64,000 nucleotides of DNA, taken from NCBI GenBank assembly GCA_044868695.1, contig JBIOWP010000107.1, forward strand, positions 4,966-68,965. Reading direction: 5' to 3'. Made by a program: the position numbers and the translations under genes. The notes below the pieces were generated by a model. It was not told where the DNA came from and ran no database searches. It saw only the letters and a list, made by a program, of their open reading frames with translations. This DNA is from a bacterium (GTDB lineage Bacteria > Sysuimicrobiota > Sysuimicrobiia > Sysuimicrobiales > Kaftiobacteriaceae). This document shows positions 11,209 through 50,523 of this stretch, piece after piece (within the stretch, counting starts at the first letter, position 1; every line of letters starts with the position of its first letter).

Positions 11209-11387
11209 ATTTCGAAGAGATACCTGGATTTGGGCAAAAATTGGCAAAATTTGAGGCTCACCTCACCATTTCTCTAAAAATCGCCGTATTATTCGCGATT
11301 CCATGACTATGCGCTCCTCCGTTTGGCTGTTCCGGATGGGGGTGCCCCCTTGCTATACTGGGCATGACTCCCTCTGGAGGCTCCCAC

Positions 11388-11735
11388 ATGAAGCAGCAGG
11401 TCACCCCCAACCCGAACCCCAACCCCGTCTTCACCGTCAGCGTCGCCAGCAGCCTTGTGGGTGTCTCGCCCCAAACCCTGCGCAGGTGGGAGCGGTATGG
11501 CCTCGTGTGCCCCGTTCGGGAAGGTCGGTCGCGCCGGAGGCTCTACTCGTGGCCTGAGATCGAGCGGGCGCAGGAAATCCGCTACCTGGTGATCCGCAAG
11601 CGCGTGCCGCTCCGCGCCGTAAAGTTGCAGCTGCGTCCGGCGGTCGCGCGTAAAGCGACTGGGCTTCCCGCCAAGAGCGACGGCCGCACGGGCGCCCCGC
11701 TGATTCCCCGCCTCGCCCTGGGCATTCCGCGCTAG
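11388..11735 (+). CDS. MerR-family HTH regulator (HspR-like, no effector domain)
   Basis: PVFTVSVASSLVGVSPQTLRRWERYGLV..R....RLYS MerR HTH; extended -10 TGcTATACT at 11351-11359 and GGAGG RBS. Confidence 0.82.
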   Translation: MKQQVTPNPNPNPVFTVSVASSLVGVSPQTLRRWERYGLVCPVREGRSRRRLYSWPEIERAQEIRYLVIRKRVPLRAVKLQLRPAVARKATGLPAKSDGRTGAPLIPRLALGIPR

Positions 11736-11753
11736 TACCCGGTCAACTGCGTA

Positions 11754-11850
11754 AATCGTGAATCGCGAATCGTGAATCGCGACTGCATCTCCACTTTTGG
11801 CTTGACCGTAGTATTCTAAGAGTAGTACCGAATATCGATTCACGATTCAC
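11754..11850. repeat. Inverted pair of heptamer tandem arrays (AATCGYG x4 / CGATTCA x2) bracketing the iscS promoter
   Basis: AATCGTG-AATCGCG-AATCGTG-AATCGCG at 11754-11781; complementary CGATTCA x2 at 11836-11849; TTGACC lies between. Confidence 0.8.
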
Positions 11851-11868
11851 ATCTCCTGACGCACCGCG

Positions 11869-13038
11869 ATGAGTGCAGATCGCCGCATCTACCTGGACCA
11901 CGGTGCCACCACGCCCACCGATCCGCGGGTGGTGGAGGCGATGCTGCCGTTCTTTGCCGAGAAGTTCGGGAACGCCGGCAGCGTCCACGCGTTCGGGCAG
12001 GAGGCACGCGAGGCGGTGGACCGTGCGCGAGCGCTCGTCGCCACCGCCGTCGGCGCGAGTCCGCAGGAGATCGTCTTCACCAGCGGCGCCACTGAAGCGG
12101 ACAACTTCGCCATACTCGGCGCGGCGTGGGCCAACGAGTCGCGCGGACGGCACATCATCACCTCCGCGGTCGAGCATCACGCCGTGCTTGAGCCCTGCCG
12201 GTTCCTTGAGTCGCGGGGGTGGGAAGTGAGTTACCTTTGTGTGGACGGCGACGGGCGCGTGGATCCGGACGATGTGCGCCGCGCCATCCGCGGCGACACG
12301 ACCTTGATCTCAGTGATGCACGCCAACAACGAAATCGGAACCCTGGAACCGGTCGCGGAAGTCGGACGGATCGCCCGCGAACGCGGCATCCTGATGCACA
12401 GCGACGCCACGCAGTCGGTGGGCATCCTCCCGGTCAACGTGGACGCGCTGTCTGTGGATCTGCTGTCGATGTCCGCGCACAAGCGCTATGGCCCGAAGGG
12501 CGTCGGCGCACTGTACATCCGGAAGGGATCGAAGCTGGCGCGGGTGCAGCACGGCGGTTCGCATGAGCGCAACCGCCGGGCCGGGACGGAGAACGTGCCG
12601 GCGATCGTGGGGTTCGGAACTGCACTGGCCATCGCGCTCCCCGGCATGGATGGTGAGGCCGCCCGGCTGCGCCGCCTGCGCGACCGTCTCATCGACGGGC
12701 TCACCAGCCATCCCGGCGCTCGCCTCAATGGCCACCGCAGCGACCGGCTGCCGGGAAACGTGAACGTCTCATTCGAAGGGACCGACAGCGAGTCCATCCT
12801 GCTGGCGCTCGACCTGCGGGGCGTGGCGGCGAGCAGCGGGTCGGCCTGTACGTCGGGCAGCCTCGAGCCCTCGCACGTGCTCAGCGCCATCGGCCTGCCG
12901 CCCGAGGCCGCCGCCGGCACGGTCCGCCTGACGCTGGGACGCTGGAACACCGACCAGGAGGTCGACGACCTGCTGGCCATGGTTCCTGAGATTCTTCGCA
13001 GTCTCCGCGGAGTGCGTGCGGGCGCCCGTCCCAGCTGA
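11869..13038 (+). CDS. iscS: Cysteine desulfurase (IscS/NifS class I)
   Basis: YLDHGATT, FTSGATE, SAHKRYGPKG (PLP Lys), SSGSACTS catalytic Cys loop. Confidence 0.95.
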   Translation: MSADRRIYLDHGATTPTDPRVVEAMLPFFAEKFGNAGSVHAFGQEAREAVDRARALVATAVGASPQEIVFTSGATEADNFAILGAAWANESRGRHIITSAVEHHAVLEPCRFLESRGWEVSYLCVDGDGRVDPDDVRRAIRGDTTLISVMHANNEIGTLEPVAEVGRIARERGILMHSDATQSVGILPVNVDALSVDLLSMSAHKRYGPKGVGALYIRKGSKLARVQHGGSHERNRRAGTENVPAIVGFGTALAIALPGMDGEAARLRRLRDRLIDGLTSHPGARLNGHRSDRLPGNVNVSFEGTDSESILLALDLRGVAASSGSACTSGSLEPSHVLSAIGLPPEAAAGTVRLTLGRWNTDQEVDDLLAMVPEILRSLRGVRAGARPS

Positions 13039-13107: not shown

Positions 13108-13470
13108 ATGGTCGTGACCGATTACCTCCCGATTTTCGTGCACTTCGCCCTGGCCGTCCTGCTGACAGGCGGACTCCTGGCGGCGCATGCGGTCCTGGGC
13201 GCCCGGCGCTCTCCGCTGCCGGGTAAGGTCGAGCCTTATGAATCGGGCGTCTGGCCGATCGGGTCGGCGCGCGAGCGCGTGCCCATCCGCTACTACCTCA
13301 TTGCGATGCTGTTCCTGCTGTTTGACGTCGAGGCGGTGTTCCTCTACCCGTGGGCAGTGGTCGCCCGCGAGCTGAAGGTGCTCGGGTTGATTGAGATGCT
13401 GGCGTTTGTGGGCGTGCTCGGCCTGGGGTTCCTCTACGCGTGGAAACGGGGGGCGCTGGAGTGGCAGTAA
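13108..13470 (+). CDS. nuoA: NADH-quinone oxidoreductase subunit A
   Basis: PYESG loop, [25 protein letters not shown]. Confidence 0.96.
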
Positions 13471-14003
13471 GAGAACCCCGCGGCACGCTCGTCTCCCGCG
13501 CGAAGTCGCCCGCCGAGGCAACGGAGGCCGATGTCCGCGCGCTGGAAGGCAGCCTCCTCACGACGACCGTGGAGCGCGTGGTGGGATGGGCGCGGAAGTC
13601 CTCGGTGTGGCCCACCCAGTTCGGGCTGGCCTGCTGCGCGATCGAGATGATGTCCACCGCCGCTGCGCGGTTCGACATCGCCCGCTTCGGCAGCGAGCTG
13701 TTCCGCGCGTCGCCGCGTCAGGCCGACCTGATGATCGTCTCAGGCCGCGTCTCGCAGAAGATGGCGCCCGTCATCAAGCACATCTACGAGCAGATGCTGG
13801 AGCCGAAGTGGGTCATCGCGATGGGGGACTGCGCGAGCTGCGGCGGCGTGTTCAACAACTACGCGCTGGTGCAGGGCGTGGACAAGCTCATTCCCGTCGA
13901 TGTCTACGTGGCCGGGTGCCCGCCGCGCCCGGAGGCGCTGCTGTACGGGTTCCTCAAACTGCAGGAGCTCATCGCCGCCTCGTCACGGCGGAGGGCGCGA
14001 TGA
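13461..14003 (+). CDS. nuoB: NADH-quinone oxidoreductase subunit B
   Basis: [30 protein letters not shown] (N2 cluster ligands); start uncertain (GTG 13461). Confidence 0.95.
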
Positions 14004-14512
14004 TGCATCCCGCAGAGGACCTGGTCCAACGGCTCGGCGAGGCCGTACTCGAGCGGGTGGCATTCCGTGACGAGCTCACCCTCGTGGTCGCGCGCGACCG
14101 CATCCTCCGTTCGCTTGAGGCCGCCCGGGATGCGGGCTTCCGCATGCTCACGGACCTAACGGCCGTCGACCGCCACCCCGCAGTCCCGCGGTTCGAGGTC
14201 GTGTACCTGCTGACATCGCTCGAACCGCGTGGCCGGGTGCGCCTGAAGGTGCAGGTCGCCGCCGACGACACGGTGGTTCCGTCGGCGACGGCGCTGTGGC
14301 CCGCCGCGAACTGGCTGGAGCGGGAAGTGTTCGACCTGTTCGGCATCCGCTTTGAGGGCCACCCAGACCTGCGGCGGATCCTGCTGCCGGATGAGTGGGA
14401 AGGGTATCCGCTGCGCAAAGATGCTCCGCTGGTCGAAGAACCCGTGGAATTTGTCGGCCACACGCCGAAGGTCCCCAGCCAGATCATCCCGAAGTCGCCG
14501 CCCCGCTCGTAG
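14000..14512 (+). CDS. nuoC: NADH-quinone oxidoreductase subunit C
   Basis: [39 protein letters not shown]. Confidence 0.95.
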
Positions 14513-14524
14513 GCGAAGCCGCAG

Positions 14525-15703
14525 ATGAGCGAACCCGTCCGCGAGACCCTCGTGCTCAACATGGGACCGCAGCACCCCGCGACCCACGGAGTGCTGCGGC
14601 TCCTGCTCGAGCTGGAAGGCGAAGTCATCCTCGGGACCGAGCCCGTCATCGGCTACCTGCACACCGGGTTCGAGAAAGAGATGGAGACCCGGACGTATCA
14701 TCAGAATATCGTCTTCCCGCCCCGCATCGAGTACCTCGCGACCTTCATCGAGGAACAGGCCTACGTCCTGGCGGTGGAAAAGTTGCTCGGGATCACCGCG
14801 CCCAAGCGCGCCGAGGGGATCCGGCTCATCCTCGCCGAGCTCTCGCGGATCGCCAGCCACCTCGTGTACCTGGGGACCGCGGCCATCGACCTCAACGTCA
14901 GCAGCGTCTTTATGTACTGTTTCCGCGACCGCGAGCAGCTGCTAGACATCTTTGAGATGGTGTCGGGCCAGCGGATGATGCACGGCTACTTCCGCATCGG
15001 CGGGCTGCAGTGGGATCTTCCCGAGGGCTTTGAGGCGCGGGTCCGCGCATTTCTGGACGAGCTGCCCGCGCATCTCGACGAATACGAGACGCTGCTCACC
15101 GATAACCTCATCTGGCGGAAACGGACCGAGGGGGTCGGGGTGCTAAGCGCCGAGGACGCGGTGCGCTACGGCTGCACGGGACCGGTGCTGCGCGGCTCGG
15201 GCGTGGCCTACGACGTCCGCAAAGCCTTTCCGTACGGCGGGTACGACGAAGTCGAGTTCGATGTGCCGCTCGGGACGAACGGCGACGCGTTCGACCGGTA
15301 CCGGGTCCGCATGGACGAGATGCGGCAGAGCCGGCGCATCATTCTGCAGGTGCTCGACCGCCTGCCCGGCGGCCCGGTGCTCGTGGAGGACCGTAAGGTC
15401 GCCCTGCCCCCGCGGCGGGAACTGGTCCGCAGCATGGAGGCGGTCATTCACCAGTTCAAACTGGTGAGCGAAGGGATTCACCCGCCCGTTGGCGAGGTCT
15501 ACGCCGCGGTGGAGTCCCCCCGCGGCGAGAAAGGGTACTACCTGGTCAGCGACGGGAGCAATCGCCCGCTTCGGGCGCGCGTGCGGTCTGCCTCGTTTAA
15601 TAACTTGCAGGCGCTGCCAGTCATGCTCTCCCGCGGCACGATTGCCGACGTCGTGGTGGCCATCGCGTCCATCGACATCGTGCTGGGGGACGTGGACCGA
15701 TGA
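14525..15703 (+). CDS. nuoD: NADH-quinone oxidoreductase subunit D
   Basis: LNMGPQHPATHGVLRL, GYLHTGFEK, ESPRGE, DIVLGDVDR. Confidence 0.97.
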   Translation: MSEPVRETLVLNMGPQHPATHGVLRLLLELEGEVILGTEPVIGYLHTGFEKEMETRTYHQNIVFPPRIEYLATFIEEQAYVLAVEKLLGITAPKRAEGIRLILAELSRIASHLVYLGTAAIDLNVSSVFMYCFRDREQLLDIFEMVSGQRMMHGYFRIGGLQWDLPEGFEARVRAFLDELPAHLDEYETLLTDNLIWRKRTEGVGVLSAEDAVRYGCTGPVLRGSGVAYDVRKAFPYGGYDEVEFDVPLGTNGDAFDRYRVRMDEMRQSRRIILQVLDRLPGGPVLVEDRKVALPPRRELVRSMEAVIHQFKLVSEGIHPPVGEVYAAVESPRGEKGYYLVSDGSNRPLRARVRSASFNNLQALPVMLSRGTIADVVVAIASIDIVLGDVDR

Positions 15704-17514
15704 CGAACGGGCTGTCAGAGAGCGCCAAAACGGAGATCCGGCGTCTAGTGGCGCAGTTCCCGCAGGCGCAGTCGGCCCTGCTGGGCGCGCTGTTTGTGGC
15801 ACAGCAGGAGGCCGGCTACCTGACGCCCGGCGCGCTCGCCGACGTAGCAGCGGTCATGGAGCTTCCGGTGAGCGAGGTCACCTCCGTCGCCTCGTTCTAC
15901 CACCTCCTCCGGTTCACACCCGGCGGCCGGCACGTCGTCCAGGTCTGCACGAACGTTCCCTGCCTGCTCGCCGGATGCGGACGGATACTCGACCATCTGC
16001 GGAACACCCTCGGCGTCGACGTCGGGGAGACCACGCCCGACGGCGTGTTCACGCTGCGGACGGCGGAGTGCCTGGCCGCCTGCGATGCCGCCCCGATGAT
16101 GATGGTCGGTGCTGAGCGGTTTGGCCCGTTGACCCCGGCACGAGTAGATGACGTCCTGAATGGCTACCGGCACGGTGCGGGGGGTCAGGTGTCAGGGGCC
16201 CCTCGCCCGACCCCCGAGCTCAGTTCCCCGGCCCCGCCGGCCGCAAGAGAGCCCTTCCTCCTCAAATACGTTCGCGAACCCGACCAGGCCGAGCTGGATG
16301 CCTACCGCGGGCGCGGCGGCTATGAAGGGCTGCGCCGCGCGCTCACGCTGAGCGCCGACGCGGTGACCGAGGAGGTGGACAAGTCCGGACTCCGCGGGCG
16401 GGGAGGCGCCGGCTTTGCGACGGGCAGGAAGTGGAAGTTCATCCCCAAGGATCCGGCAATCACCCGGTATGTGGTCATCAACGCCGACGAGGGCGAACCG
16501 GGAACGTTCAAGGACCGGACGCTACTGGAGGGCGATCCACACCGGATGATCGAGGGCATCGCGATCGCCAGTTACGCCGTCGGCGCCCACTATGCGTTCA
16601 TCTATCTCCGCAGGGAGTTCGATCAGGCGCGCGCGAAGCTGGAGCGCGCCCTGGCACAGGCGTATGCGGCGGGACTGCTGGGCCGGAATGTCCAGGGCAG
16701 CGGGTTCGACCTCGAGGTCGTGCTGGCCACCGGCGCCGGTGCCTACATCGCCGGTGAGGAGACCGCGCTGCTGGAATCGCTGGAGGGCCGGCGCGCGATG
16801 CCGCGGCTCAAGCCGCCGTATTATCCGGCCGTGAAGGGGCTGTACATGCAGCCGACCGTGGTCAACAACGTGGAGACCCTGTGCCACGTCGCGTGGATTC
16901 TCGCCAAGGGAGCCGAGTGGTACCGGCAGCAGGGGCCGCCGATCCTCATCTCGGTCAGCGGGCACGTGGCCCGCCCCGGCGTCTACGAAGTGCCGCTGGG
17001 CACGACCGTCCGGCAGGTGATCGACCGCGCCGGGGGCGTGCGGGATGGGCATCAGTTCAAAGCGTGCTTCCCCGGCGGCTCGTCGTCGGCCATCCTGCCG
17101 GCCGCATACCTGGACACGCCCATGGACTACGACGCGCTGGCCAAGCTCGACGTCTACGGCTCGATGCTGGGTTCGGGTGCGCTCATCGTGATGGACGACA
17201 CGACCTGCATGGTAGAGGTCGTCGCCCGCACTGTGGAGTTCTACCGCGACGAGTCCTGCGGGAAGTGCACTCCCTGCCGCGAGGGGACGATGTGGCTGGG
17301 CCAGGCGCTGCGGCGTCTGCTCGCCGGAGGGGGCCGGCCGGAAGATCTGCAGCTGCTGGAGAGCATTGCACGCGGCATGACCGGAACGTGCTTCTGCCCG
17401 CTGGGCGAGAGCGTGCCGCCGGCCATTTACTCGACGCTGCGGTTCTTCCGCCACGAGTACGAGCATCACGTGAAGACGGGACGGTGCGACGTGGGCGAGG
17501 CCATCCATGCCTAA
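15700..17514 (+). CDS. nuoEF: Fused NADH-quinone oxidoreductase subunits E and F
   Basis: N-terminal NuoE 2Fe-2S motif (CTNVPC...CLAAC) joined by a Pro-rich linker to NuoF (GRGGAGF, NADEGEPGTFKDR, GEETAL, ESCGKCTPC, CFCPLG) in one 604-aa ORF. Confidence 0.93.
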   Translation: MTNGLSESAKTEIRRLVAQFPQAQSALLGALFVAQQEAGYLTPGALADVAAVMELPVSEVTSVASFYHLLRFTPGGRHVVQVCTNVPCLLAGCGRILDHLRNTLGVDVGETTPDGVFTLRTAECLAACDAAPMMMVGAERFGPLTPARVDDVLNGYRHGAGGQVSGAPRPTPELSSPAPPAAREPFLLKYVREPDQAELDAYRGRGGYEGLRRALTLSADAVTEEVDKSGLRGRGGAGFATGRKWKFIPKDPAITRYVVINADEGEPGTFKDRTLLEGDPHRMIEGIAIASYAVGAHYAFIYLRREFDQARAKLERALAQAYAAGLLGRNVQGSGFDLEVVLATGAGAYIAGEETALLESLEGRRAMPRLKPPYYPAVKGLYMQPTVVNNVETLCHVAWILAKGAEWYRQQGPPILISVSGHVARPGVYEVPLGTTVRQVIDRAGGVRDGHQFKACFPGGSSSAILPAAYLDTPMDYDALAKLDVYGSMLGSGALIVMDDTTCMVEVVARTVEFYRDESCGKCTPCREGTMWLGQALRRLLAGGGRPEDLQLLESIARGMTGTCFCPLGESVPPAIYSTLRFFRHEYEHHVKTGRCDVGEAIHA

Positions 17515-40655: not shown

Positions 40656-40740
40656 GTCCCGTCGTGTACCGCAGGCAGGAATTGCGTTGCTCGGCGCGAA
40701 TCGCGCGAGAACCCAGCGAAGCTCGTGGAGGCGACAGACC

Positions 40741-42099
40741 ATGGAGAGCGTGAAGTACCTGCTTGACGAATCGCAGATTCCCAAATCCTGGTACAACATC
40801 TGCTCGGATCTGCCCGTGCCGCTTCCGCCGGTGCTGCATCCGGGCACCAAGCAGCCGGTGGGCCCGGACGATCTCGCGCCGCTGTTCCCGATGGACCTGA
40901 TCCTGCAGGAGGTCAGCACTGAGCGCGAGATCCCCATCCCCGAGCCGGTGCGCGAGGTGTACAAGTTGTGGCGGCCCACGCCGCTGCATCGCGCACGGCG
41001 GCTCGAACGGGCGCTCGACACCCCGGCGCACATCTACTACAAGTACGAAGGCACCAGCCCGGCCGGTAGTCATAAGCCGAACACCGCGGTCGCGCAGGCG
41101 TTCTACAACAAACAGGCGGGCGTGCGGCGGCTGAGCACGGAGACCGGAGCCGGACAGTGGGGCAGCGCGCTGGCGCTGGCCTGCCGGATGTTCGGGCTCG
41201 AGTGCACCGTGTACATGGTCAAGGTGAGCTACGACCAGAAGCCGTACCGCAAGACCATGATGCAGACCTGGGGCGCTGAAGTCATCCCCAGCCCGAGTTC
41301 CCGTACCAACGCCGGCCGCGCCATCGCGGCCAAAGACCCGCGCTCGCCGGGCAGCCTGGGCATCGCCATCAGCGAGGCCGTCGAGGACGCCGCGACGCAC
41401 GATGACACGAAGTACTCTCTGGGCAGTGTCCTCAACCACGTCCTCCTACACCAGACCGTCATCGGGGTGGAAGCCCGCAAGCAGATGGAGATGGCCGGCG
41501 AGTATCCCGATGTTGTCATCGGGTGCATCGGGGGCGGGAGCAACATGTCGGGGCTCACGTTCCCGTTCCTGGCCGACAAGTTCAAGGGCAAGAAAGTGCG
41601 GATCGTGGCGGTGGAGCCCGAGGCGTGCCCGTCGCTGACCCGCGGCCGGTACCTCTATGACTTTGGGGACACTGCGGCAACCACGCCACTCATCAAGATG
41701 TACACGCTCGGCCACAGTTTTGTGCCGCCGGCGATCCACGCGGGTGGGCTGCGCTACCACGGCGATGCGCCCCTCGCCTGCCTGCTGTATCATCACAAGT
41801 ACATCGAGGCCGCCGCCTACTCGCAGCGGTCCGTCTTTGAAGCCGCGGTGCAGTTCGCGCAGACCGAGGGGATCATTCCGGCGCCGGAATCCGCGCACGC
41901 GATCCGCAAGGCCGTCGATGAGGCGCTCCAGTGCAAGCGCGACGGCACGGCCCGGGTGATCCTGTTCAATCTCAGCGGACACGGGCACTTTGACCTGAAG
42001 GCCTACGAGGATTTCCTGGCCGGCAGGCTGGAGGACTTCGTCTACCCGCAGCAGCAGGTGGAGCAGGCGATGAAGGAACTGGCGGCGATTCAGCCCTAG
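40741..42099 (+). CDS. trpB2: TrpB2-type tryptophan synthase beta-like PLP enzyme (stand-alone)
   Basis: [29 protein letters not shown] (PLP Lys), [21 protein letters not shown]; no trpA adjacent. Confidence 0.93.
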
Positions 42100-42180: not shown

Positions 42181-43011
42181 ATGGCGGCATCGTTGTTGAT
42201 CACCCTGCGAGAGGGGCTCGAAGCCGCTCTCATCGTGGGGATCATTCTCGCGTATCTGGCAAAGACCGGGAACCGGGACAAGTCAAGGATGGTCTGGCTC
42301 GGCACCGGCCTCGCCGTCGTCATGAGCATCGTCGCCGGGGCCGGCATCTTCTTCAGTGCCGGTGGGCTCGCGGGCCGGGCGGAGGCGATGTTCGAGGGTA
42401 CGGCGATGCTGACCGCCGCCGGGGTCCTGACCTACATGATCTTCTGGATGCGCCGGCAGGCGATCAACATCCGCGCCCACCTGCAGTCGCAGGTCAACAT
42501 GGCGCTGGAGACTGGATCGCTCGGGGCGCTGGCGTTCCTGGCGTTCGTGGCGGTGGGGCGCGAAGGCATCGAGACGGCGCTGTTCATGTTCGCGGCCGTC
42601 CGGACCGCAACCCCGATGGCGGCCACAGTCGGTGGGCTGTTGGGTTTGTTGGCGGCGTTTGTGTTGGGATATCTCCTCTATCGAGGCACATACCGCCTCA
42701 ACCTGCGCGCGTTCTTCAACGTCACCAGCATCCTGCTGCTGCTGTTCGCGGCGGGTCTGCTGGCCCACGGCACCCATGAGTTCCACGAGGCGGCTGTCAT
42801 TCCGCCGATCATCGAGCACGTGTGGGACACGAACTCGGTACTCCACGAAGCCTCACCGCTCGGGAGCCTGCTGAAGGCCGTCTTCGGCTACAACGGCAAC
42901 CCCTCGCTGGTGGAGGTTCTGGTCTACGCGGCCTACCTGGTCCTCGTCGGCTGGGCATACTTCCGGCCGCCCACCCCAAAGGAGCTGGCTCCGGAACGCG
43001 CGAAAGCCTGA
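42181..43011 (+). CDS. FTR1/EfeU family iron permease
   Basis: Two RExxE motifs (LREGLEA, REGIET), 7 predicted TM segments, FGYNGNPS. Confidence 0.92.
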   Translation: MAASLLITLREGLEAALIVGIILAYLAKTGNRDKSRMVWLGTGLAVVMSIVAGAGIFFSAGGLAGRAEAMFEGTAMLTAAGVLTYMIFWMRRQAINIRAHLQSQVNMALETGSLGALAFLAFVAVGREGIETALFMFAAVRTATPMAATVGGLLGLLAAFVLGYLLYRGTYRLNLRAFFNVTSILLLLFAAGLLAHGTHEFHEAAVIPPIIEHVWDTNSVLHEASPLGSLLKAVFGYNGNPSLVEVLVYAAYLVLVGWAYFRPPTPKELAPERAKA

Positions 43012-43017
43012 CACGGC

Positions 43018-43308
43018 ATGCGTACAGCTCACGGACTGGACTTGAGGTCGCTCGCGCTCAGCCTCGTCGCCTCCTGGTGATGACTGGTCGCCCCCGTGGT
43101 GAGCCTCCTCGGGTTAGGAGGCGCGACGCTGCAGGTTTTCTTTGAGTCGGCCAGGCCGTATCTGCTGGTCCTGACCGGATTCTCGCTGGCCTATTCGTTC
43201 TACCTCGTGTATCGCCGGCCGTTTCGCCCCCGACCCGCCGTCGCGCGACTGTGGATCACGACTGTAGTATCCGTCATCCTCGTGTCCATTCCGTTCTTCC
43301 GGGACTGA
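43018..43308 (+). CDS. MerT-like small membrane protein with two in-frame TGA codons at the CC metal-binding motif: candidate tandem-selenocysteine (UU) protein, 96 aa
   Basis: MRTAHGLDLRSLALSLVASW-TGA-TGA-LVAPVVSLLGLGGATLQVFFESARPYLLVLTGFSLAYSFYLVYRR...; aligns by eye with the MerT pattern ASxCC..P....LG..G.......PY; starts 6 nt after the FTR1 stop; SECIS-like hairpin follows. Confidence 0.72.
43087..43127 (+). other. Candidate bacterial SECIS element
   Basis: Upper stem GCCTCCT (43103-09)/AGGAGGC (43116-22), loop CGGGTT; lower stem GTCGC (43087-91)/GCGAC (43123-27); apical loop 26 nt after the second TGA. Confidence 0.6.
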
Positions 43309-43385
43309 CCCGCGGTCCACCCCTTCACAGTTTTCGCGGTTTCCACCAATGGCGTAAGACGAGCCTGACATAGGAGAGTACTGCC

Positions 43386-43442
43386 AAAGAAGGAGGGGAC
43401 TGTCCCCTCCTTGCAATAGCCCATATTGGTCATTGATGGGTG
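43386..43442. repeat. Dispersed ~57-bp element with GGAGGGGAC-T-GTCCCCTCC palindrome (copy 2)
   Basis: Shares a 26-nt identical core plus downstream similarity with 29734-29790. Confidence 0.8.
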
Positions 43443-45066: not shown

Positions 45067-46212
45067 ATGAGCCGCCGGCGGTTCGAGACCCGCGCGATCC
45101 ATGAGGGGCAGCCGCCGGATCCCGCGACCGGCGCGGTCATGACGCCGATCTATCAGACCGCGACATACGCGCAGTCCGAGCCCGCGGTCCACAAGGGATA
45201 CGACTACAGCCGCACCGCGAATCCGACCCGCACCGCGCTGGAAACATGCCTGGCGTCGCTGGAAGAGGGGGCGCACGGGCTCGCGTTTGCCTCGGGGATG
45301 GCGGCGATCACCACAGCGTCATATCTGCTCAACCCCGGCGACCGGGTGCTGGCCCCGGACGACGTGTACGGCGGAACCTACCGGTTGTTCGTCCGCGTCC
45401 TCCAGCGCTACGGCATCGCGCCGTCGTTCGTGGACATGACCGACCTGACGCGGGTCGAGGCGGCGCTGGGCACCCACCCGCGCCTGGTGCTGGTCGAGAC
45501 GCCGACCAACCCGTACCTCAAGATCCTCGACATTGCGCGCATCGCCGAGCTCGCGCATACCCACGACGCGCTCGTGCTCGTGGACAATACGTTTGCGTCT
45601 CCCTATTTCCAGCGGCCGCTGACCCTGAGTGCGGATATCGTCGTCCACTCGACAACCAAGTACCTGGGCGGGCACAGCGACGTGATCGGCGGCGCCGCGG
45701 TGACCAACAGCAGGGAGATCGCTGAAACGCTGCGGTTCCACCAGAATGCCGCCGGCGCGGTGCCGGGACCGTTCGACTCCTGGCTCGTCCTGCGCGGGAT
45801 CAAGACGCTGGCGGTGCGGATGGAACGCCACGCCGCCAACGCGATGCAGGTGGCGCAGTTCCTAAACGGCCATCCCGCCGTGGCCCGGACGTTCTACCCC
45901 GGTCTCCCCGGCCACCCCGGCTACGACCTCGCCCGGCGGCAGATGACGGGATTCGGCGGGATGGTGTCGTTCGTTCTGAAGGGGGGAGGCCGCGCGGCCA
46001 GGGCCGTGGCTTCCTCGACGCGGGTCTTCCTCCTGGCGGAGAGCCTGGGCGGCGTGGAATCGCTTCTCGACCATCCGGCCAGCATGACGCACGCCTCGCT
46101 CGCCGGCTCCCCGATGCAGGTTGACGAAGGGCTGATCCGCCTCTCGGTGGGGATTGAGCACATCGACGACCTCATTGACGATTTGAAGCAGGCGCTCGAC
46201 AACGCGAGATGA
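45067..46212 (+). CDS. Cystathionine gamma-lyase/synthase family PLP enzyme
   Basis: TRAIHEG, PIYQTATY, YSRTANPT, FASGMAA, ETPTNP, HSTTKYLGGHSD, AESLGGVES, IRLSVGIE. Confidence 0.93.
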   Translation: MSRRRFETRAIHEGQPPDPATGAVMTPIYQTATYAQSEPAVHKGYDYSRTANPTRTALETCLASLEEGAHGLAFASGMAAITTASYLLNPGDRVLAPDDVYGGTYRLFVRVLQRYGIAPSFVDMTDLTRVEAALGTHPRLVLVETPTNPYLKILDIARIAELAHTHDALVLVDNTFASPYFQRPLTLSADIVVHSTTKYLGGHSDVIGGAAVTNSREIAETLRFHQNAAGAVPGPFDSWLVLRGIKTLAVRMERHAANAMQVAQFLNGHPAVARTFYPGLPGHPGYDLARRQMTGFGGMVSFVLKGGGRAARAVASSTRVFLLAESLGGVESLLDHPASMTHASLAGSPMQVDEGLIRLSVGIEHIDDLIDDLKQALDNAR

Positions 46213-46484
46213 CGACCGTCTACGTCCCAACTCCGCTCCGCCGCACGACGGGCGGCCAGGGCAAGGTCCAGCTTGCCGGCCGCACCGTGCGGGAGTTGCT
46301 TGACGCGCTGGAGCGCCGCCATCCCGGCATCCGGCAGCAGGTGTTCGATGAGCGCGGCGAGGTACGCAGCTTCATCAATGTCTTCGTCAACGGCACCGAG
46401 ATCCGGCAACTGCAGGGGCTGGCGACGCCCGTGAAAGAGACGGACGAGGTGTCGATCATCCCCGCGATGGCGGGCGGGTTGTGA
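46209..46484 (+). CDS. Ubiquitin-like sulfur carrier (MoaD/ThiS/CysO family) ending GG-L
   Basis: VYVPTPLRR.TGG, INVFVNG..IR.LQGL.T, IIPAMAGG followed by one extra Leu before TGA. Confidence 0.9.
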   Translation: MTTVYVPTPLRRTTGGQGKVQLAGRTVRELLDALERRHPGIRQQVFDERGEVRSFINVFVNGTEIRQLQGLATPVKETDEVSIIPAMAGGL

Positions 46485-47917
46485 AGCGCACGGCGGGCAA
46501 GGTCAGGCCACGGCCCCGCCGCGCGGCGCCAACCGCCGCCAGGGACGAAATCTTCGACAGTGTCCTCGATGTGGTCGGCAAGACCTCGCTCGTGCGCCTG
46601 CACAAGGTCACCCGCGGCCTGCGCGCCGATGTCGTGGCGAAGCTCGAGTACCTCAATCCCGGCGGTTCGGTCAAAGACCGGATCGGCCCGACGATCCTCG
46701 ATGATGCGGAGCAGCGCGGGCTACTGCGGCCCGGCGGAACGATCGTGGAAGCCACCTCCGGGAATACCGGCGTCGGCCTGGCCATCGCCGCGGCGGTCCG
46801 CGGGTACCGGACCATCTTCGTCATGCCGGACAAGATGTCGGAGGAGAAGATCCGGCTGCTGCGCGCGTTCGGCGCCCGCGTCGTCATTACGCCGACCGCG
46901 GTGGCGCCCGACGATCCACGAAGCTACTACAGCGTGAGCCGGCGCATCGCCGAGGAGACCCCGAACAGCTTCTACGCCAACCAGTACGCCAATCCGGCGA
47001 ACCCGCAGGCGCACTATCGCACGACCGGTCCGGAGATCTGGCGCCAGACCGGCGGCCGGCTCGACCTCTTCATTGCCACGATGGGGACCGGCGGGACAAT
47101 TTCCGGCGCCGGCAAGTTTCTCAAGGAGCGGCGCTCGGCGCTGCGCGTCATCGGGGTCGATCCGCTGGGGTCGGTCTTTTACGAATACTTCAAGACCGGA
47201 AAGCTCCCCGAGCCGCGGACATATAAGGTGGAGGGGATCGGTGAAGACTTTCTCCCCGAGACGATGGATTTCTCCGTCGTGGACGAGGTCGTGCAGATCT
47301 CCGACCGCGAGGCGTTCATGATGACGCGGCGGCTGGTGCGCGAAGAAGGACTGTTCTGCGGCGGCAGCAGCGGCGCGGCGGTGGCGGGCGCGATCAAGTA
47401 TCTGCGCACTCTGCCCGACGGCGGCGCGGGCCTGCGGGCGGTCGTGGTGCTCCCCGATTCCGGATCGCGCTACCTCTCCAAGATCTTCTCCGACGACTGG
47501 ATGCGGGAGCATGGATTCTTGGAGATCGAACTAGGCACCGTCGGGGAGCTGGTGCAGACCAAGTCCATCCCGCTGGTGTCGGCCAGCCGCACCGATGCGG
47601 TCAGCGACGTCGTCGCCAAGATGAAGCAGTACGACGTGTCGCAGCTGCCGGTGCTGGAAGACGAGCGCCTGGTCGGTATGATCAGCGAAGTGGACCTGCT
47701 CACGCACCTGCTGGATGGCTCTCACCGCCCCTCGGATCCAATCCAGCCCATCATTGATCCCGCGCCCCCGGTGGTGGCCCCCGACAGCCCGATCGACGTC
47801 CTGGCCGACGTCTTCCTCTCCGCCAACGCGGCGGTCGTTGTGGATCACGGCGCGGTGGTGGGGATCGTCACCAAGATCGACGTCATCGACCACCTGGCCA
47901 AACGCCTGGGCCGCTGA
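46481..47917 (+). CDS. cbs: Cystathionine beta-synthase (PLP domain plus C-terminal CBS pair)
   Basis: KLEYLNPGGSVKDR, EATSGNTG, KVEGIGED, PDSGSRYLSKIFSDDW, tandem CBS domains. Confidence 0.9.
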   Translation: MKRTAGKVRPRPRRAAPTAARDEIFDSVLDVVGKTSLVRLHKVTRGLRADVVAKLEYLNPGGSVKDRIGPTILDDAEQRGLLRPGGTIVEATSGNTGVGLAIAAAVRGYRTIFVMPDKMSEEKIRLLRAFGARVVITPTAVAPDDPRSYYSVSRRIAEETPNSFYANQYANPANPQAHYRTTGPEIWRQTGGRLDLFIATMGTGGTISGAGKFLKERRSALRVIGVDPLGSVFYEYFKTGKLPEPRTYKVEGIGEDFLPETMDFSVVDEVVQISDREAFMMTRRLVREEGLFCGGSSGAAVAGAIKYLRTLPDGGAGLRAVVVLPDSGSRYLSKIFSDDWMREHGFLEIELGTVGELVQTKSIPLVSASRTDAVSDVVAKMKQYDVSQLPVLEDERLVGMISEVDLLTHLLDGSHRPSDPIQPIIDPAPPVVAPDSPIDVLADVFLSANAAVVVDHGAVVGIVTKIDVIDHLAKRLGR

Positions 47918-47922
47918 CCGGG

Positions 47923-48777
47923 ATGAGAGACAACACGCGCGCCGGCGGGGCGCTGCGGCTTTCAACCGGGCAGTCGTTGCCCGATTTGCGGATCGTCCCC
48001 CGCGCCGAGGTCCATTTGCACGAGGAGACCGATCCGGCCCGCGTGCAGCGGCTGGTCGCGCGCATGCGAGCGGACGGCATCCTGCGCAATCCGCCGATTG
48101 CCGCGCCGCTGCCGGAAGGCGGGTACGTCGTTCTCGACGGAGCCAACCGCAGCACTGCCCTGATGGCGTTTGAGGCGCCGCTGCTGCTCGTCCAGGTTGT
48201 CGACTATCATGATCCCGCGGTCAGGCTCGATGTCTGGCATCACCTGCTGACCGAGCCGGTGGACCTCGGGGCCCTGCTGCGGTCCAAGGGACTGATCTTG
48301 AAGGACATGAGTGTGTCTGAAGCGGCGCAGGCACTGGCCCAGCGCGCGATCGCATGCTACCTGCTGGGTCCTGCCGGAGCCCGGTCAGTGGCCGCCGCAC
48401 CGGCCCAGCCGTCCGCGGCGGTTCTCTCGGCGGTTGTGGACGCCTACAAGGCGACAACCCGCATTTACCGCGTGATGGACACAGACTTGGATACGCTCGC
48501 CCGCGCGTATGGGTCCGTCTCGGCGGTGGTGGTCTTCCCGACCTTCACCAAACGCGACATTCTTGAGATTGCGCGGTCGCCAGTCAAGCTGCCCGCCGGC
48601 ATTACGCGGCATCTCATCCCCGGGCGCGCGCTGCGCGTGAATCTGCCGCTCGAGGTCCTGACCTCGCCGGGCGACGCCGAGCAAAAGAACCGCTGGCTGG
48701 TCGAGGAGATTCACCAGCGGCTGCTCGAGAACCGCGTCCGGTACTACCCGGAAGACTCCTTCCTGTTTGATGAGTGA
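47923..48777 (+). CDS. ParB/Srx-fold protein resembling free L-serine kinases SbnI/SerK
   Basis: LHEE (catalytic Glu position), DGILRNP, VLDGANR, WHH, LPAGITRHLIPGRAL.VNLPL..L and C-terminal VRYY.E, a pattern I recall from S. aureus SbnI. Confidence 0.72.
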   Translation: MRDNTRAGGALRLSTGQSLPDLRIVPRAEVHLHEETDPARVQRLVARMRADGILRNPPIAAPLPEGGYVVLDGANRSTALMAFEAPLLLVQVVDYHDPAVRLDVWHHLLTEPVDLGALLRSKGLILKDMSVSEAAQALAQRAIACYLLGPAGARSVAAAPAQPSAAVLSAVVDAYKATTRIYRVMDTDLDTLARAYGSVSAVVVFPTFTKRDILEIARSPVKLPAGITRHLIPGRALRVNLPLEVLTSPGDAEQKNRWLVEEIHQRLLENRVRYYPEDSFLFDE

Positions 48778-49666
48778 GCTGCTCAACGCCATCGGCAATA
48801 CGCCGCTGCTGCGCCTAACCCGCGTCACGCGGGATCTGCCGCTGGCGGTTGAAGTGCACGTCAAAGCCGAGTGGTTCAACCCCGGGGGATCGGTGAAGGA
48901 CCGTCCGGTGCGCCGGATCATCCTCGACGCGGAGCGCGACGGCCGCCTGTCGCGCGACCGGACCATCCTCGATTCGTCATCCGGAAACGCCGGCATCGCC
49001 TACGCCATGATCGGAGCGGCCCGGGGCTATCGCGTGCGTCTGGTCGTGCCAGGCAACGTCAGCGAGGAACGCAAGCACATCCTGCGCGCGTACGGCGCGG
49101 AGGTGGAATACTCCGATCCGCTAGAAGGGTCGGACGGCGCGATCGTCGTCGCCCGCCGCCTGCACGAGGAGGGCCGCGGCCAGTTCTTCTACGGCGACCA
49201 GTACAGCAATCCCAGCAATCCCCGCGCGCACTACGAGACGACCGGTCCTGAGGTGTTCGCGCAAACCGAGTCGCGCATCACCCATTTTGTGGCCGCGCTG
49301 GGCACCAGCGGGACGATCGTCGGGGCCGGGCGCCGGCTGCGGGAACTGCAGCCGGGCGTGCAGATTGTGGCGGTCGAGCCGGACACGGCCCTGCACGGCA
49401 TCGAGGGATTGAAGCACATGGCCAGCGCGATCGTTCCGGGAATCTATGACCGCTCCGTCCACCACCGCACGATTCCGATGAGCACGGAGGCCGCCTACGA
49501 GATGGCCAGGCGCCTGGCGCGCGAGGAGGGGCTCCTGGTCGGCCAGTCATCCGGCGCCGCGGTGGCGGGCGCTCTGCAGGTGGCCCGTGAGCTTGAGGAG
49601 GGTGTAATCGTCGCGGTCTGCCCTGACGGCGGCGACCGCTACTTGTCGACCGCCCTCTGGAGATAA
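48770..49666 (+). CDS. cysM: PLP-dependent cysteine synthase family enzyme (CysM / O-phosphoserine sulfhydrylase-like)
   Basis: IGNTPL, KAEWFNPGGSVKDR, DSSSGNAG, GTSGT, EGLKHM, CPDGGDRYLS; directly upstream of mec. Confidence 0.82.
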   Translation: MSELLNAIGNTPLLRLTRVTRDLPLAVEVHVKAEWFNPGGSVKDRPVRRIILDAERDGRLSRDRTILDSSSGNAGIAYAMIGAARGYRVRLVVPGNVSEERKHILRAYGAEVEYSDPLEGSDGAIVVARRLHEEGRGQFFYGDQYSNPSNPRAHYETTGPEVFAQTESRITHFVAALGTSGTIVGAGRRLRELQPGVQIVAVEPDTALHGIEGLKHMASAIVPGIYDRSVHHRTIPMSTEAAYEMARRLAREEGLLVGQSSGAAVAGALQVARELEEGVIVAVCPDGGDRYLSTALWR

Positions 49667-49702
49667 AATCGAGCGTTTTCTGTCGTATAATGGGGGACAA
49701 CG

Positions 49703-50101
49703 GTGCTGGAACTGAGTCGGGACCAGGCTGCGGCGCTTGTTGCGCACGCCAACGAGGAGTTTCCCAACGAGTGCTGCGGTCTGCTGGCCGGGCGCAACGG
49801 CCGGGTGGAGCGGGTCTACCGGGGCACTAACGTCGATTACAGCCCCTATACGTACCTGATGGATCCCAAAGAGCAACTGGCCGCGTTCAAGGACATGGAA
49901 GCGGCCGGGCTGGACCTGGTAGGGATCTATCACTCGCACACCCACACGGCTGCGTACCCGTCCAAGACCGACGTGGCGAAGGCGTTCTACCCAGATGTAC
50001 TCTACATGATCGTATCGCTGGCGAGGCGGGAGACTCCAGAGATCCGGGCATTCCGGTTCTTGGACGCAGAGATCGTCGAAGAGGACGTGATCATTCGATG
50101 A
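49703..50101 (+). CDS. mec: Mec/JAB (MPN+) metallopeptidase
   Basis: PNECCGLL, IYHSHTH...YPS.TD JAMM motif (E...HxH.....S..D). Confidence 0.9.
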   Translation: MLELSRDQAAALVAHANEEFPNECCGLLAGRNGRVERVYRGTNVDYSPYTYLMDPKEQLAAFKDMEAAGLDLVGIYHSHTHTAAYPSKTDVAKAFYPDVLYMIVSLARRETPEIRAFRFLDAEIVEEDVIIR

Positions 50102-50523
50102 AAGTGTCCACCCGCGCGGAGTACGGACTGCGGGCGTTGATCGACCTCGCCAGCCACTACGGCGAAGGTCCGGTGCAGACGCATCAGATTGCGGCCCGCC
50201 AGGGGCTGCCGGAACCCTACCTCAATCAGCTGATGAGTTCCCTCCGGCGCGCAGGCCTGGTGGCCAGCAAGCGCGGACCCGCGGGCGGGCACGTGCTGGC
50301 GCGCGCCCCCGAGGCCATCACCCTCCGCGAGGCCTTCGACGTCCTGGAGGGGTCGACGGCGCCGTGGTGGTGCGTCGAGTCCGATGATCCCGACTGCGTG
50401 TATGCCCACGGCTGCGGGCTGCGGCCGGTGTGGCAGGCGATCAACCAGGCGGTGGAGCGCGTCCTGGGCGAGATGTCGCTCGCGGATATCTCACGCGTGA
50501 GGCAGCCTGCCGGACGCACCTGA
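50098..50523 (+). CDS. Rrf2 family transcriptional regulator (CymR/IscR-like)
   Basis: STRAEYGLRAL, YLNQLM..LRRAGLV.S.RG..GG..LA; Cys cluster WWCVESDDPDCVYAHGC. Confidence 0.92.
   Translation: MKVSTRAEYGLRALIDLASHYGEGPVQTHQIAARQGLPEPYLNQLMSSLRRAGLVASKRGPAGGHVLARAPEAITLREAFDVLEGSTAPWWCVESDDPDCVYAHGCGLRPVWQAINQAVERVLGEMSLADISRVRQPAGRT

Follow-up and report, generated by a model that had tools for sequence, protein, structure and literature searches.

A MerT-like gene of soil bacteria with tandem in-frame UGA codons at its metal site and a single SECIS-like hairpin: a candidate Sec-Sec selenoprotein

Introduction

In the stretch of bacterial DNA analysed here (64,000 nucleotides, called the window throughout), an ATG-initiated reading frame whose product resembles the membrane transporter MerT runs into two consecutive TGA codons and continues in the same frame beyond them. 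This raises the question of whether the locus holds a broken gene, a shorter gene with a start downstream of the two TGAs, or one intact gene in which both UGAs are read as amino acids and, in the last case, which amino acid is inserted and by what means. In the usual view of bacterial decoding, every selenocysteine (Sec) codon requires a separate SECIS element directly downstream and at a tight spacing. We know of no experimental precedent for one bacterial SECIS serving two adjacent UGAs, and full-text searches turned up nothing relevant either. Here we describe the gene, its relatives, the hairpin that follows the UGAs and the neighbouring genes, and weigh the ways in which the two UGAs might be passed.

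Results and discussion

One reading frame with two consecutive UGA codons

From the ATG at 43018-43020 the frame runs through 20 sense codons (MRTAHGLDLRSLALSLVASW), then TGA at 43078-43080 and TGA at 43081-43083, and, after a further 74 sense codons, reaches its stop, TGA 43306-43308. Direct reading of the sequence matched all coordinates that the initial annotation had given for the ATG and the in-frame tandem TGA. The annotation was also right that the open reading frame list holds the 70-aa tail only (the mechanical list has just 43096-43308, from GTG 43096), and that the read-through protein is free of Cys once the two TGA positions are set aside.

43018..43308, + strand: MerT-like membrane protein gene (hereafter the UU gene); 96 codons plus stop; codons 21 and 22 are UGA UGA (proposed Sec-Sec)
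43078..43083, + strand: tandem in-frame UGA-UGA; invariant in 16 of 16 distinct sequences

In the locus of a near-identical strain (L027), TGA is the stop of 15 of the 22 called genes; TGA thus serves as a normal stop nearby, and the genetic code is not reassigned. As an error check we used Logan contigs that cover 42950-43350 and come from four soil-metagenome runs belonging to two studies. The contigs of all four runs are identical to the window at 43078-43083, so that the TGC or TGT that might have surfaced in independent data did not appear. The concordance of four independent assemblies means that TGA-TGA is not a sequencing error. One of the four contigs is a strain variant in which three other positions are changed.

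Relatives of the gene and conservation of the tandem UGA

When the read-through protein was searched against 5.8 billion clustered proteins, 23 close homologues with 65-99% identity were found, every one of which is catalogued as a hypothetical protein of 69-74 aa; these lengths indicate that all of them were called from just 3' of the UGAs. We then worked with the DNA of 28 related loci, obtained by exact look-up and by scans of genome and metagenome collections, which together with the window make up 16 distinct DNA sequences at a pairwise dS of ~0.8. The relatives come from soil metagenome contigs and MAGs and represent at least six species-level lineages. The MAG records are titled 'Bacillati bacterium ANGP1' (three species), 'Armatimonadota bacterium SAR42' or 'bacterium'. 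The family names NP-7 and 13-1-40CM-64 (PMC11962464) lead us to infer, by this route alone, that the lineage belongs to the phylum CSP1-3 (Sysuimicrobiota).

The hexamer TGATGA is found in frame and at the same position in all 28 related loci as well as in the window, and the N-terminus of the relatives is likewise conserved and ATG-initiated (MRTAHGLDLRSLALSLLASG or M(R/S)xxIDLRS...). As far as sequence comparison can tell, this conservation of TGATGA is far beyond chance. Across the 16 distinct sequences there is no TGC or TGT codon at any position in the gene, and no Cys-containing orthologue above ~50% identity was found in either of the protein libraries searched, so that the UU pair appears to be fixed in the clade. 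A tblastn search against PLSDB gave zero matches to plasmid copies, and the window stretch was found in none of the RNA runs. The second UGA is followed by C in 14 of the 16 sequences.

A pseudogene, or an artefact of assembly or sequencing, would find some support in the divergent lineage L024/L025, which carries two compensating frameshifts further downstream. However, the hexamer is invariant at a dS of ~0.8, dN/dS is low on both sides of it (see below), and the four independent assemblies agree; we regard this explanation as effectively refuted.

Selection on both sides of the UGAs

Substitution rates were estimated by the Nei-Gojobori method on the 16 distinct sequences, with the following results.

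Codons 4-20 (the 17 codons 5' of the UGAs): dS 0.82, dN/dS 0.17
Codons 23-39 (hairpin span): dS 0.29, dN/dS 0.23
Codons 40-96: dS 0.81, dN/dS 0.22

Taken over all regions 3' of the UGAs, dN/dS is 0.22-0.24. The proposal that the frame is coding on both sides of the UGAs fits these values, as codons 4-20 are under purifying selection (0.17) of the same strength as that on the body (0.22). A dN/dS of 0.17 in the leader indicates that the leader is translated in the same frame, under a constraint no weaker than that on the body of the protein.

These data bear directly on the simplest alternative to recoding, in which translation terminates at UGA-UGA and the real product is a tail of 70-74 aa made from a start just 3' of the UGAs, with or without a 20-aa leader peptide. 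It is what the gene callers imply with their proteins of 69-74 aa for 23 of 23 close homologues, and possible starts do exist: codon 27 of the window is GTG, and every sequence has CUG, UUG or GUG as its codon 23. In 7 of the 16 distinct sequences (L004, L006, L009 and L011-L014), however, no ATG, GTG or TTG follows the UGAs until codon 50, 52 or 75. The homologues therefore do not begin after the TGAs, which would have spoken against the initial proposal, and since a start at codon 50-75 lies past the most conserved block, SLLGLGGAALQVFFESARPY, a separate downstream reading frame cannot explain the conservation. Nor does a tail-only product account for the 17 upstream codons, which are in the same frame and under equal purifying selection, or for the homology to MerT, which is unbroken through the site; a cut there would split transmembrane helix 1 at the metal site. 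We thus consider a tail-only product highly improbable.

Two further ways of passing the UGAs were considered and rejected. Frameshifting is rejected because the conserved frame is identical 5' and 3' of the UGAs, and ribosomal bypassing is not supported, as the take-off codon (GGG, GGC, GGT or TGG) never equals the landing codon (CTG, TTG or GTG).

Homology to MerT and the predicted protein

Among NCBIfam models, the read-through protein matches merT_RC607 (NF033560) best, with an E value of 1.1e-9 and residues 14-87 aligned to positions 12-87 of the 97-position profile; further matches are MerTP (E 4e-7) and the MerT/CopZ selenoprotein model NF045683 (E 2.6e-4). The curated cut-offs are all missed: 10.5 vs 32.9 bits for Pfam MerT (PF02411), 38.6 vs 130 for NF033560, 16.7 vs 150 for NF010314 and 20.5 vs 375 bits for NF045683, and the clade passes no model of NCBIfam release 20. 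With phmmer, run exhaustively against 1.84 billion cluster representatives, we obtained 119 hits with E <= 1e-3. With the exception of the clade's own representative, these hits (118 of 119) are MerT-like proteins of ~90-200 aa that share at most ~50% identity with the query and align across the UGA site. Judged by these searches, the homology to MerT is significant despite the sub-cut-off scores (E 1e-9; 118 further MerT-like hits).

According to the initial annotation, the two TGAs occupy the positions of the metal-binding Cys pair. A homologue search in which TGA was read as Cys agrees, as both UGAs align with the invariant CC of 17 MerT-like homologues, 16 of which match Pfam MerT; the remaining invariant columns of this alignment are S19, G32, R46 and Y65. 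In MerT, the metal-site pair takes Hg(II) from outside. One MerT-like protein (P0071) that starts right after the CC site was suspected of being a truncated selenoprotein, but its DNA reads TGC TGC at this site, and its start is simply miscalled.

The AlphaFold model (AF2) of the protein is of low confidence (pLDDT 62) and places helices at residues 9-42, 47-66 and 72-94. From the very basic stretch RRPFRPRP after helix 2 we infer, by the positive-inside rule, a MerT topology with the N-terminus inside and the loop between helices 2 and 3 in the cytoplasm. MerT of the Tn501 type has a further Cys pair in this cytoplasmic loop, but neither the protein nor any clade member does, and the 96-residue protein has no fused HMA/CopZ domain. 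Some of the CC homologues likewise have no second Cys pair.

A single SECIS-like hairpin downstream of the UGAs

The hairpin that the initial annotation had placed adjacent to the UGAs is present.

43099..43127, + strand: SECIS-like hairpin; 7-bp upper stem GCCUCCU/AGGAGGC (43103-09/43116-22), loop CGGGUU (43110-15), 2-bp lower helix (43099-100/43126-27)

The apical loop, which reads CGGGYU across the clade, starts 29 nt past the first UGA (UGA1) and 26 nt past the second (UGA2), and the base of the hairpin lies 18-22 nt from UGA1 and 15-19 nt from UGA2. In the 13 distinct rows of the hairpin alignment, 117 of 117 pair cells hold standard pairs, a result that none of 500 column shuffles matched. 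One pair of the lower helix covaries, being C-G in 7 rows and U-A in 6, and this forces a coupled amino-acid change from V28/T37 to A28/A37; in three pairs of the upper stem a one-sided change to G-U keeps the pairing. The divergent sequence L024 keeps its stem pairing as well, even though the peptide encoded there changes from SLLGLGG to SFLGPGG. Codons 29-35 read AGC CTC CTC GGG YTA GGA GGC throughout, apart from a single C-to-T change which still pairs as G-U, and the rare codons YTA and GGA are thereby fixed within the hairpin of a GC-rich gene. Synonymous change is suppressed across the hairpin, as is evident from the dS for codons 23-39 when compared to the value of 0.81 elsewhere.

The MFE of the 33-nt element ranges from -10.5 to -15.8 kcal/mol across the sequences. 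The bSECIS model asks for a loop of 3-9 nt, a G within loop positions 1 and 2 and then a G or U, a distance of 16-37 nt between UGA and loop, and an MFE of -7.5 kcal/mol or lower (PMC13188914 Fig. 2). All four constraints are satisfied by the hairpin, which has a 6-nt loop whose positions 2 and 3 are both G. No SECIS or other family in Rfam matches it. Most stem positions are invariant, and the lone covarying pair may represent a single event on the tree. A longer lower stem of 5 bp (GTCGC/GCGAC) pairs in the window, but across the relatives only 69% of its cells pair and its outermost pair forms in just 1 of 13 rows; the covarying helix of 2 bp is thus preferred.

How both UGAs might be decoded

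The comparative evidence establishes that recoding of both UGAs would be required for making the conserved protein. Sec as the inserted residue, the use of one hairpin for both codons, and a role in metal handling are all three inferred.

A search for the machinery of Sec insertion was negative within its scope. ARAGORN scans of the window and of 25 loci gave no tRNA-Sec, there was no six-frame motif match for SelB, SelD or SelA in the 64-kb window or in any fetched locus, and the supplementary tables of the CSP1-3 paper have no entries for selA, selB or selD. Two scans for other selenoprotein genes, which looked for a TGA with a hairpin and a coding signal in the window and the loci, gave just the UU gene and off-frame noise; one candidate, at 11304, was rejected because it is intergenic.

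As the sel machinery of the genome is unconfirmed, it is conceivable that no dedicated machinery is involved, and that near-cognate tRNAs (Trp, Cys, Arg) rarely pass UGA-UGA, perhaps aided by the hairpin; the double stop would then be a strong attenuator of a protein required only in traces. UGA followed by C is a leaky context in E. coli, and the prevailing C after the second UGA would suit such read-through. On the other hand, two consecutive stops multiply rates that are already low, the insertion of Trp-Trp or of a mixture of residues would abolish the only motif that is invariant in the family, and the hairpin has the loop and the spacing of a SECIS, which is more than a mere roadblock. 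Near-cognate read-through is therefore left with only a small chance.

Another possibility is that the hairpin and a SelB-like factor do recode the UGAs, but that Cys is inserted, be it by a tRNA(Cys) that resembles tRNA(Sec) and has the anticodon UCA, or through mischarging with Cys at low selenium; the product would then be an ordinary CC MerT. tRNA(Cys) species of this kind, tRNA(Sec)-like and with a UCA anticodon, have been described in soil and sediment bacteria. The comparative evidence is equally compatible with Cys insertion, since it reveals merely that recoding takes place at a Cys position, and from sequence we cannot exclude it. Yet TGC or TGT would yield the same protein without two costly recodings, and in 16 distinct sequences neither site has reverted to a Cys codon. 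We consider insertion of Cys very unlikely for these reasons.

The case for Sec is the stronger one. The initial annotation had held Sec recoding to be more economical than two chance nonsense mutations landing on the two Cys codons, and it is now backed by the conservation of the UGAs, by selection on their two sides, by the homology and by the hairpin. We believe, with good though not complete confidence, that 43018-43308 is a gene for a Sec-Sec selenoprotein decoded with one SECIS; selA, selB, selC and selD of this genome are unverified.

For Sec-Sec decoding we propose the following sequence of events. The single in-ORF hairpin at 43099-43127 would recruit SelB-GTP-Sec-tRNA(Sec) and enable decoding of UGA1. 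After translocation by one codon, the base of the hairpin would still be 15-19 nt from the codon in the A site and folded outside the mRNA entry channel, so that a second SelB complex on the same hairpin could decode UGA2. The spacer in E. coli fdhF is ~11 nt; as the spacing in the UU gene is wider than this, the hairpin could stay folded as each of the two UGAs occupies the A site. The result would be a 96-residue, three-helix protein of the MerT superfamily in which two adjacent Sec residues replace the Cys-Cys of helix 1. Such a protein would carry a membrane-embedded vicinal diselenol(ate) or diselenide, with which it could bind a thiophilic metal ion and pass it to the other side, in the way that MerT passes Hg(II).

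Several considerations count against Sec-Sec. Besides the lack of a known precedent, of an Rfam match and of sel genes in the window and the fetched loci, the clade offers no example of Sec/Cys interchange, as it has no Cys-containing orthologue at over 50% identity. In E. coli the efficiency of decoding UGA as Sec is a few percent and, if this figure is applicable here, such an efficiency at each of the two UGAs would result in a very low yield. A vicinal diselenide, in addition, would be hard to keep reduced.

Genomic neighbourhood and possible function

The genes and elements around the UU gene are as follows.

42181..43011, + strand: efeU (FTR1-family iron permease); Pfam FTR1 E 8e-58, NCBIfam EfeU E 1e-81, above the curated cut-off
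43390..43412, + strand: 10-bp GC-rich hairpin (AAGGAGGGGA-CTG-TCCCCTCCTT), read from the sequence; without a T-run
Gene order in the window and most relatives: trpB-like, efeU, UU gene, NIF3-like, lipB, cystathionine gamma-synthase, ThiS/CysO-like, CBS
L003 and L009: ZupT-like ZIP permease in the efeU slot (NCBIfam E 6e-14)
L024: ChaN-type haem/iron uptake protein 3' of the UU gene
L002, L007 and L008: secG, UU gene, small secreted protein, tRNA-Leu

In the window the UU gene starts 6 nt past the stop of efeU, and this short gap makes it probable that the two genes form one transcription unit; the corresponding gap measures 5-12 nt in three lineages but widens to 89-138 nt in other ones. The GC-rich hairpin at 43390..43412 may mark the end of this efeU/UU-gene unit; it was missed by the terminator scan because it has no T tail.

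In no type of neighbourhood that was inspected did we find merR, merP or merA (or an HMA gene) within 3-10 kb of the UU gene. These neighbours argue against classical mercury resistance, and a MerT-like function would be assigned by homology only. Because the neighbours are genes of iron and zinc uptake and not mer genes, the substrate is left open. Our best guess at a working function is the handling of a thiophilic trace metal, putatively linked to cation uptake and with a substrate that is unidentified.

On balance we lean, if only slightly, towards a wider interpretation, namely that this lineage routinely decodes UGA-UGA as Sec-Sec with one SECIS at an unusually large distance (15-22 nt), that the product places a vicinal diselenol in a transmembrane helix, and that UU is fixed, with no Cys orthologue among ~15 billion catalogued proteins. 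As the gene keeps company with Fe/Zn uptake genes and not with those of mercury resistance, the protein may then serve a selenium-dependent trafficking of a trace metal (or of Se/S) in aerobic soil bacteria, and not detoxification.

If Sec-Sec decoding from one hairpin is true, a single element can be loaded by the SelB/SECIS system more than once, and the gene offers a natural template for engineering proteins with multiple Sec residues. One can hardly imagine a more thiophilic metal site in nature than a vicinal diselenol within a membrane helix, and such a site could help to explain how trace amounts of Hg, Cu(I), Ag or Cd are taken up or kept out by bacteria of the soil; a soil lineage that is abundant but uncultured would, in addition, turn out to require selenium. 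For annotation the consequence is more immediate, as the public catalogue records all 23 close homologues as hypothetical fragments.

Comparison with known systems

The closest known relative is MerT itself (PF02411; in Gram-positives NF033560, merT_RC607), to which the UU protein is alike in length (96 vs 97) and in its three predicted helices. The two share the S-x-[CC/UU]-x-x-P of helix 1, and G32, R46-P47 and Y65-R66 are conserved. They differ in that MerT has Cys-Cys where the UU protein has the proposed Sec-Sec, and the UU protein scores far below the cut-offs of the family; MerT of the Tn501 type, moreover, has a second Cys pair which the UU protein does not. The genomic setting is different as well: unlike the MerT gene of a mer operon, the UU gene has no merR, merP or merA near it, and has efeU or a ZupT-like gene beside it.

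A likeness of a purely chemical kind exists to mammalian thioredoxin reductase, a soluble eukaryotic enzyme with a 3'-UTR SECIS, whose C-terminal Gly-Cys-Sec-Gly forms a vicinal selenenylsulfide. In both cases the chalcogens are adjacent, an eight-membered ring is possible and soft metals would be bound avidly, but thioredoxin reductase has Cys-Sec where the UU protein would have Sec-Sec.

With the bSECIS consensus (bSECISearch; the prototype is E. coli fdhF), the hairpin of the UU gene shares a stem-loop within the reading frame, a loop of 6 nt, an upper stem of 7 bp and a stable fold (MFE -13.5 kcal/mol). What sets the UU gene apart from this consensus is that one element follows two UGAs.

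Selenoproteins of the MerT family are known. The statement of the initial annotation that CU variants of MerT exist is documented by a catalogued MerT-family selenoprotein group with a CU motif (Haft, bioRxiv 10.1101/2022.07.06.499078), and a catalogued 'putative mercuric transport protein' with a C/SxxU motif and one Sec corresponds to the MerT/CopZ fusion NF045683 (PMC13188914 Table 1). These proteins share with the UU protein the MerT fold, selenium at the metal-binding site and a presumed handling of soft metals. They have, however, one Sec, located either beside a Cys or in a fused HMA domain, whereas in the UU protein both positions of helix 1 would be Sec.

Bacterial proteins with two Sec residues are also known, in the form of the UxxU metal-binding protein NF041115, FmdB-family UxxU, TsoB (UxxxxU) and MbdU (PMC13188914 Table 1). 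As is proposed for the UU gene, their recoded UGAs number more than one over a short distance and the site is presumed to bind metal, but the Sec residues are 2-4 residues apart or in separate motifs, while those of the UU gene would be adjacent. The initial annotation was not aware of any bacterial protein described as having adjacent Sec-Sec decoded with one SECIS, and the inventory of May 2026, which covers 119 prokaryotic selenoprotein families, indeed has no UU motif (PMC13188914); pipelines that find selenoproteins, as well as NCBIfam, consequently have no model for UU. Against this background of known MerT-family selenoproteins and known selenoproteins with two spaced Sec residues, we suggest that the new element is most likely the combination found here, a selenoprotein of the MerT superfamily with adjacent Sec-Sec and a single SECIS.

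Genes flanking the UU gene

The UU gene, which encodes a MerT-like membrane protein with a tandem in-frame TGA-TGA, lies downstream of the FTR1-family iron permease gene efeU. Directly 5' of efeU is a gene for a TrpB-like enzyme, which is kept in nearly all relatives. In two of the fetched loci (L003 and L009) a ZupT-like permease gene occupies the syntenic position of efeU; the "metal importer" slot 5' of the UU gene is thus filled by different families.

Window 40687-42099: TrpB-like (TrpB2-type) PLP enzyme (NCBIfam NF009057, E 1e-226)
L003 4663-5448 and L009 1589-2374: ZupT-like ZIP metal permease, 261 aa (NCBIfam E 6e-14; Pfam Zip weak)

The stop codon of efeU (TGA, 43009-11) is in frame with the UU gene and lies just two codons 5' of its ATG (window 43009-43020). 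This arrangement is seen in the window and in locus L004 and is absent in locus L001; judged from these sequences, the shared frame is therefore probably a matter of chance.

On the 3' side of the UU gene there is a perfect 10-bp hairpin without a T tail:

Window 43390-43412: AAGGAGGGGA-CTG-TCCCCTCCTT

This hairpin may be a terminator; alternatively, it may sequester the Shine-Dalgarno-like AAGGAGG 5' of the NIF3-like gene.

Sulfur-related genes in the window

Further 3' of the UU gene (window 46209-50500, corresponding to 13114-17428 of the near-identical strain locus L027), genes for cysteine biosynthesis of the protein-thiocarboxylate type form a compact cluster, which is preceded by a cystathionine gamma-synthase-family gene. 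Its members include:

ThiS/CysO-like carrier, 91 aa
PALP+CBS enzyme
SbnI/SerK-like protein, O-phosphoserine synthesis (NCBIfam E 5e-20)
Second PALP enzyme
Prok-JAB (Mec-like) peptidase
Rrf2 regulator

Elsewhere (window 11364-13038) lie two adjoining genes whose identification rests solely on their translated sequences and not on a family search:

Window 11364-11735: MerR-type HTH protein
Window 11869-13038: NifS/IscS-like cysteine desulfurase

Cysteine desulfurases of this class are also able to act as selenocysteine lyases.

A divergent UU-gene copy and a classical mer gene set

A divergent copy of the UU gene is found at 2504-2839 of locus L024, and L025 is identical there. The N-terminus, the TGA-TGA and the SECIS-like hairpin are all retained; the stretch corresponding to residues 45-72 is shifted to the +1 frame, and the sequence then returns to frame 0, which implies two compensating frameshifts. 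Accordingly, this is either a decaying copy or the same assembly error repeated in two metagenomes.

A classical merR, merT and HMA gene set is present on the metagenome contig L026 (2450-3630), where it adjoins Mu-like phage portal and Mu F genes; this merT carries the family's Cys-Cys, and its annotated start is placed 3' of that site.
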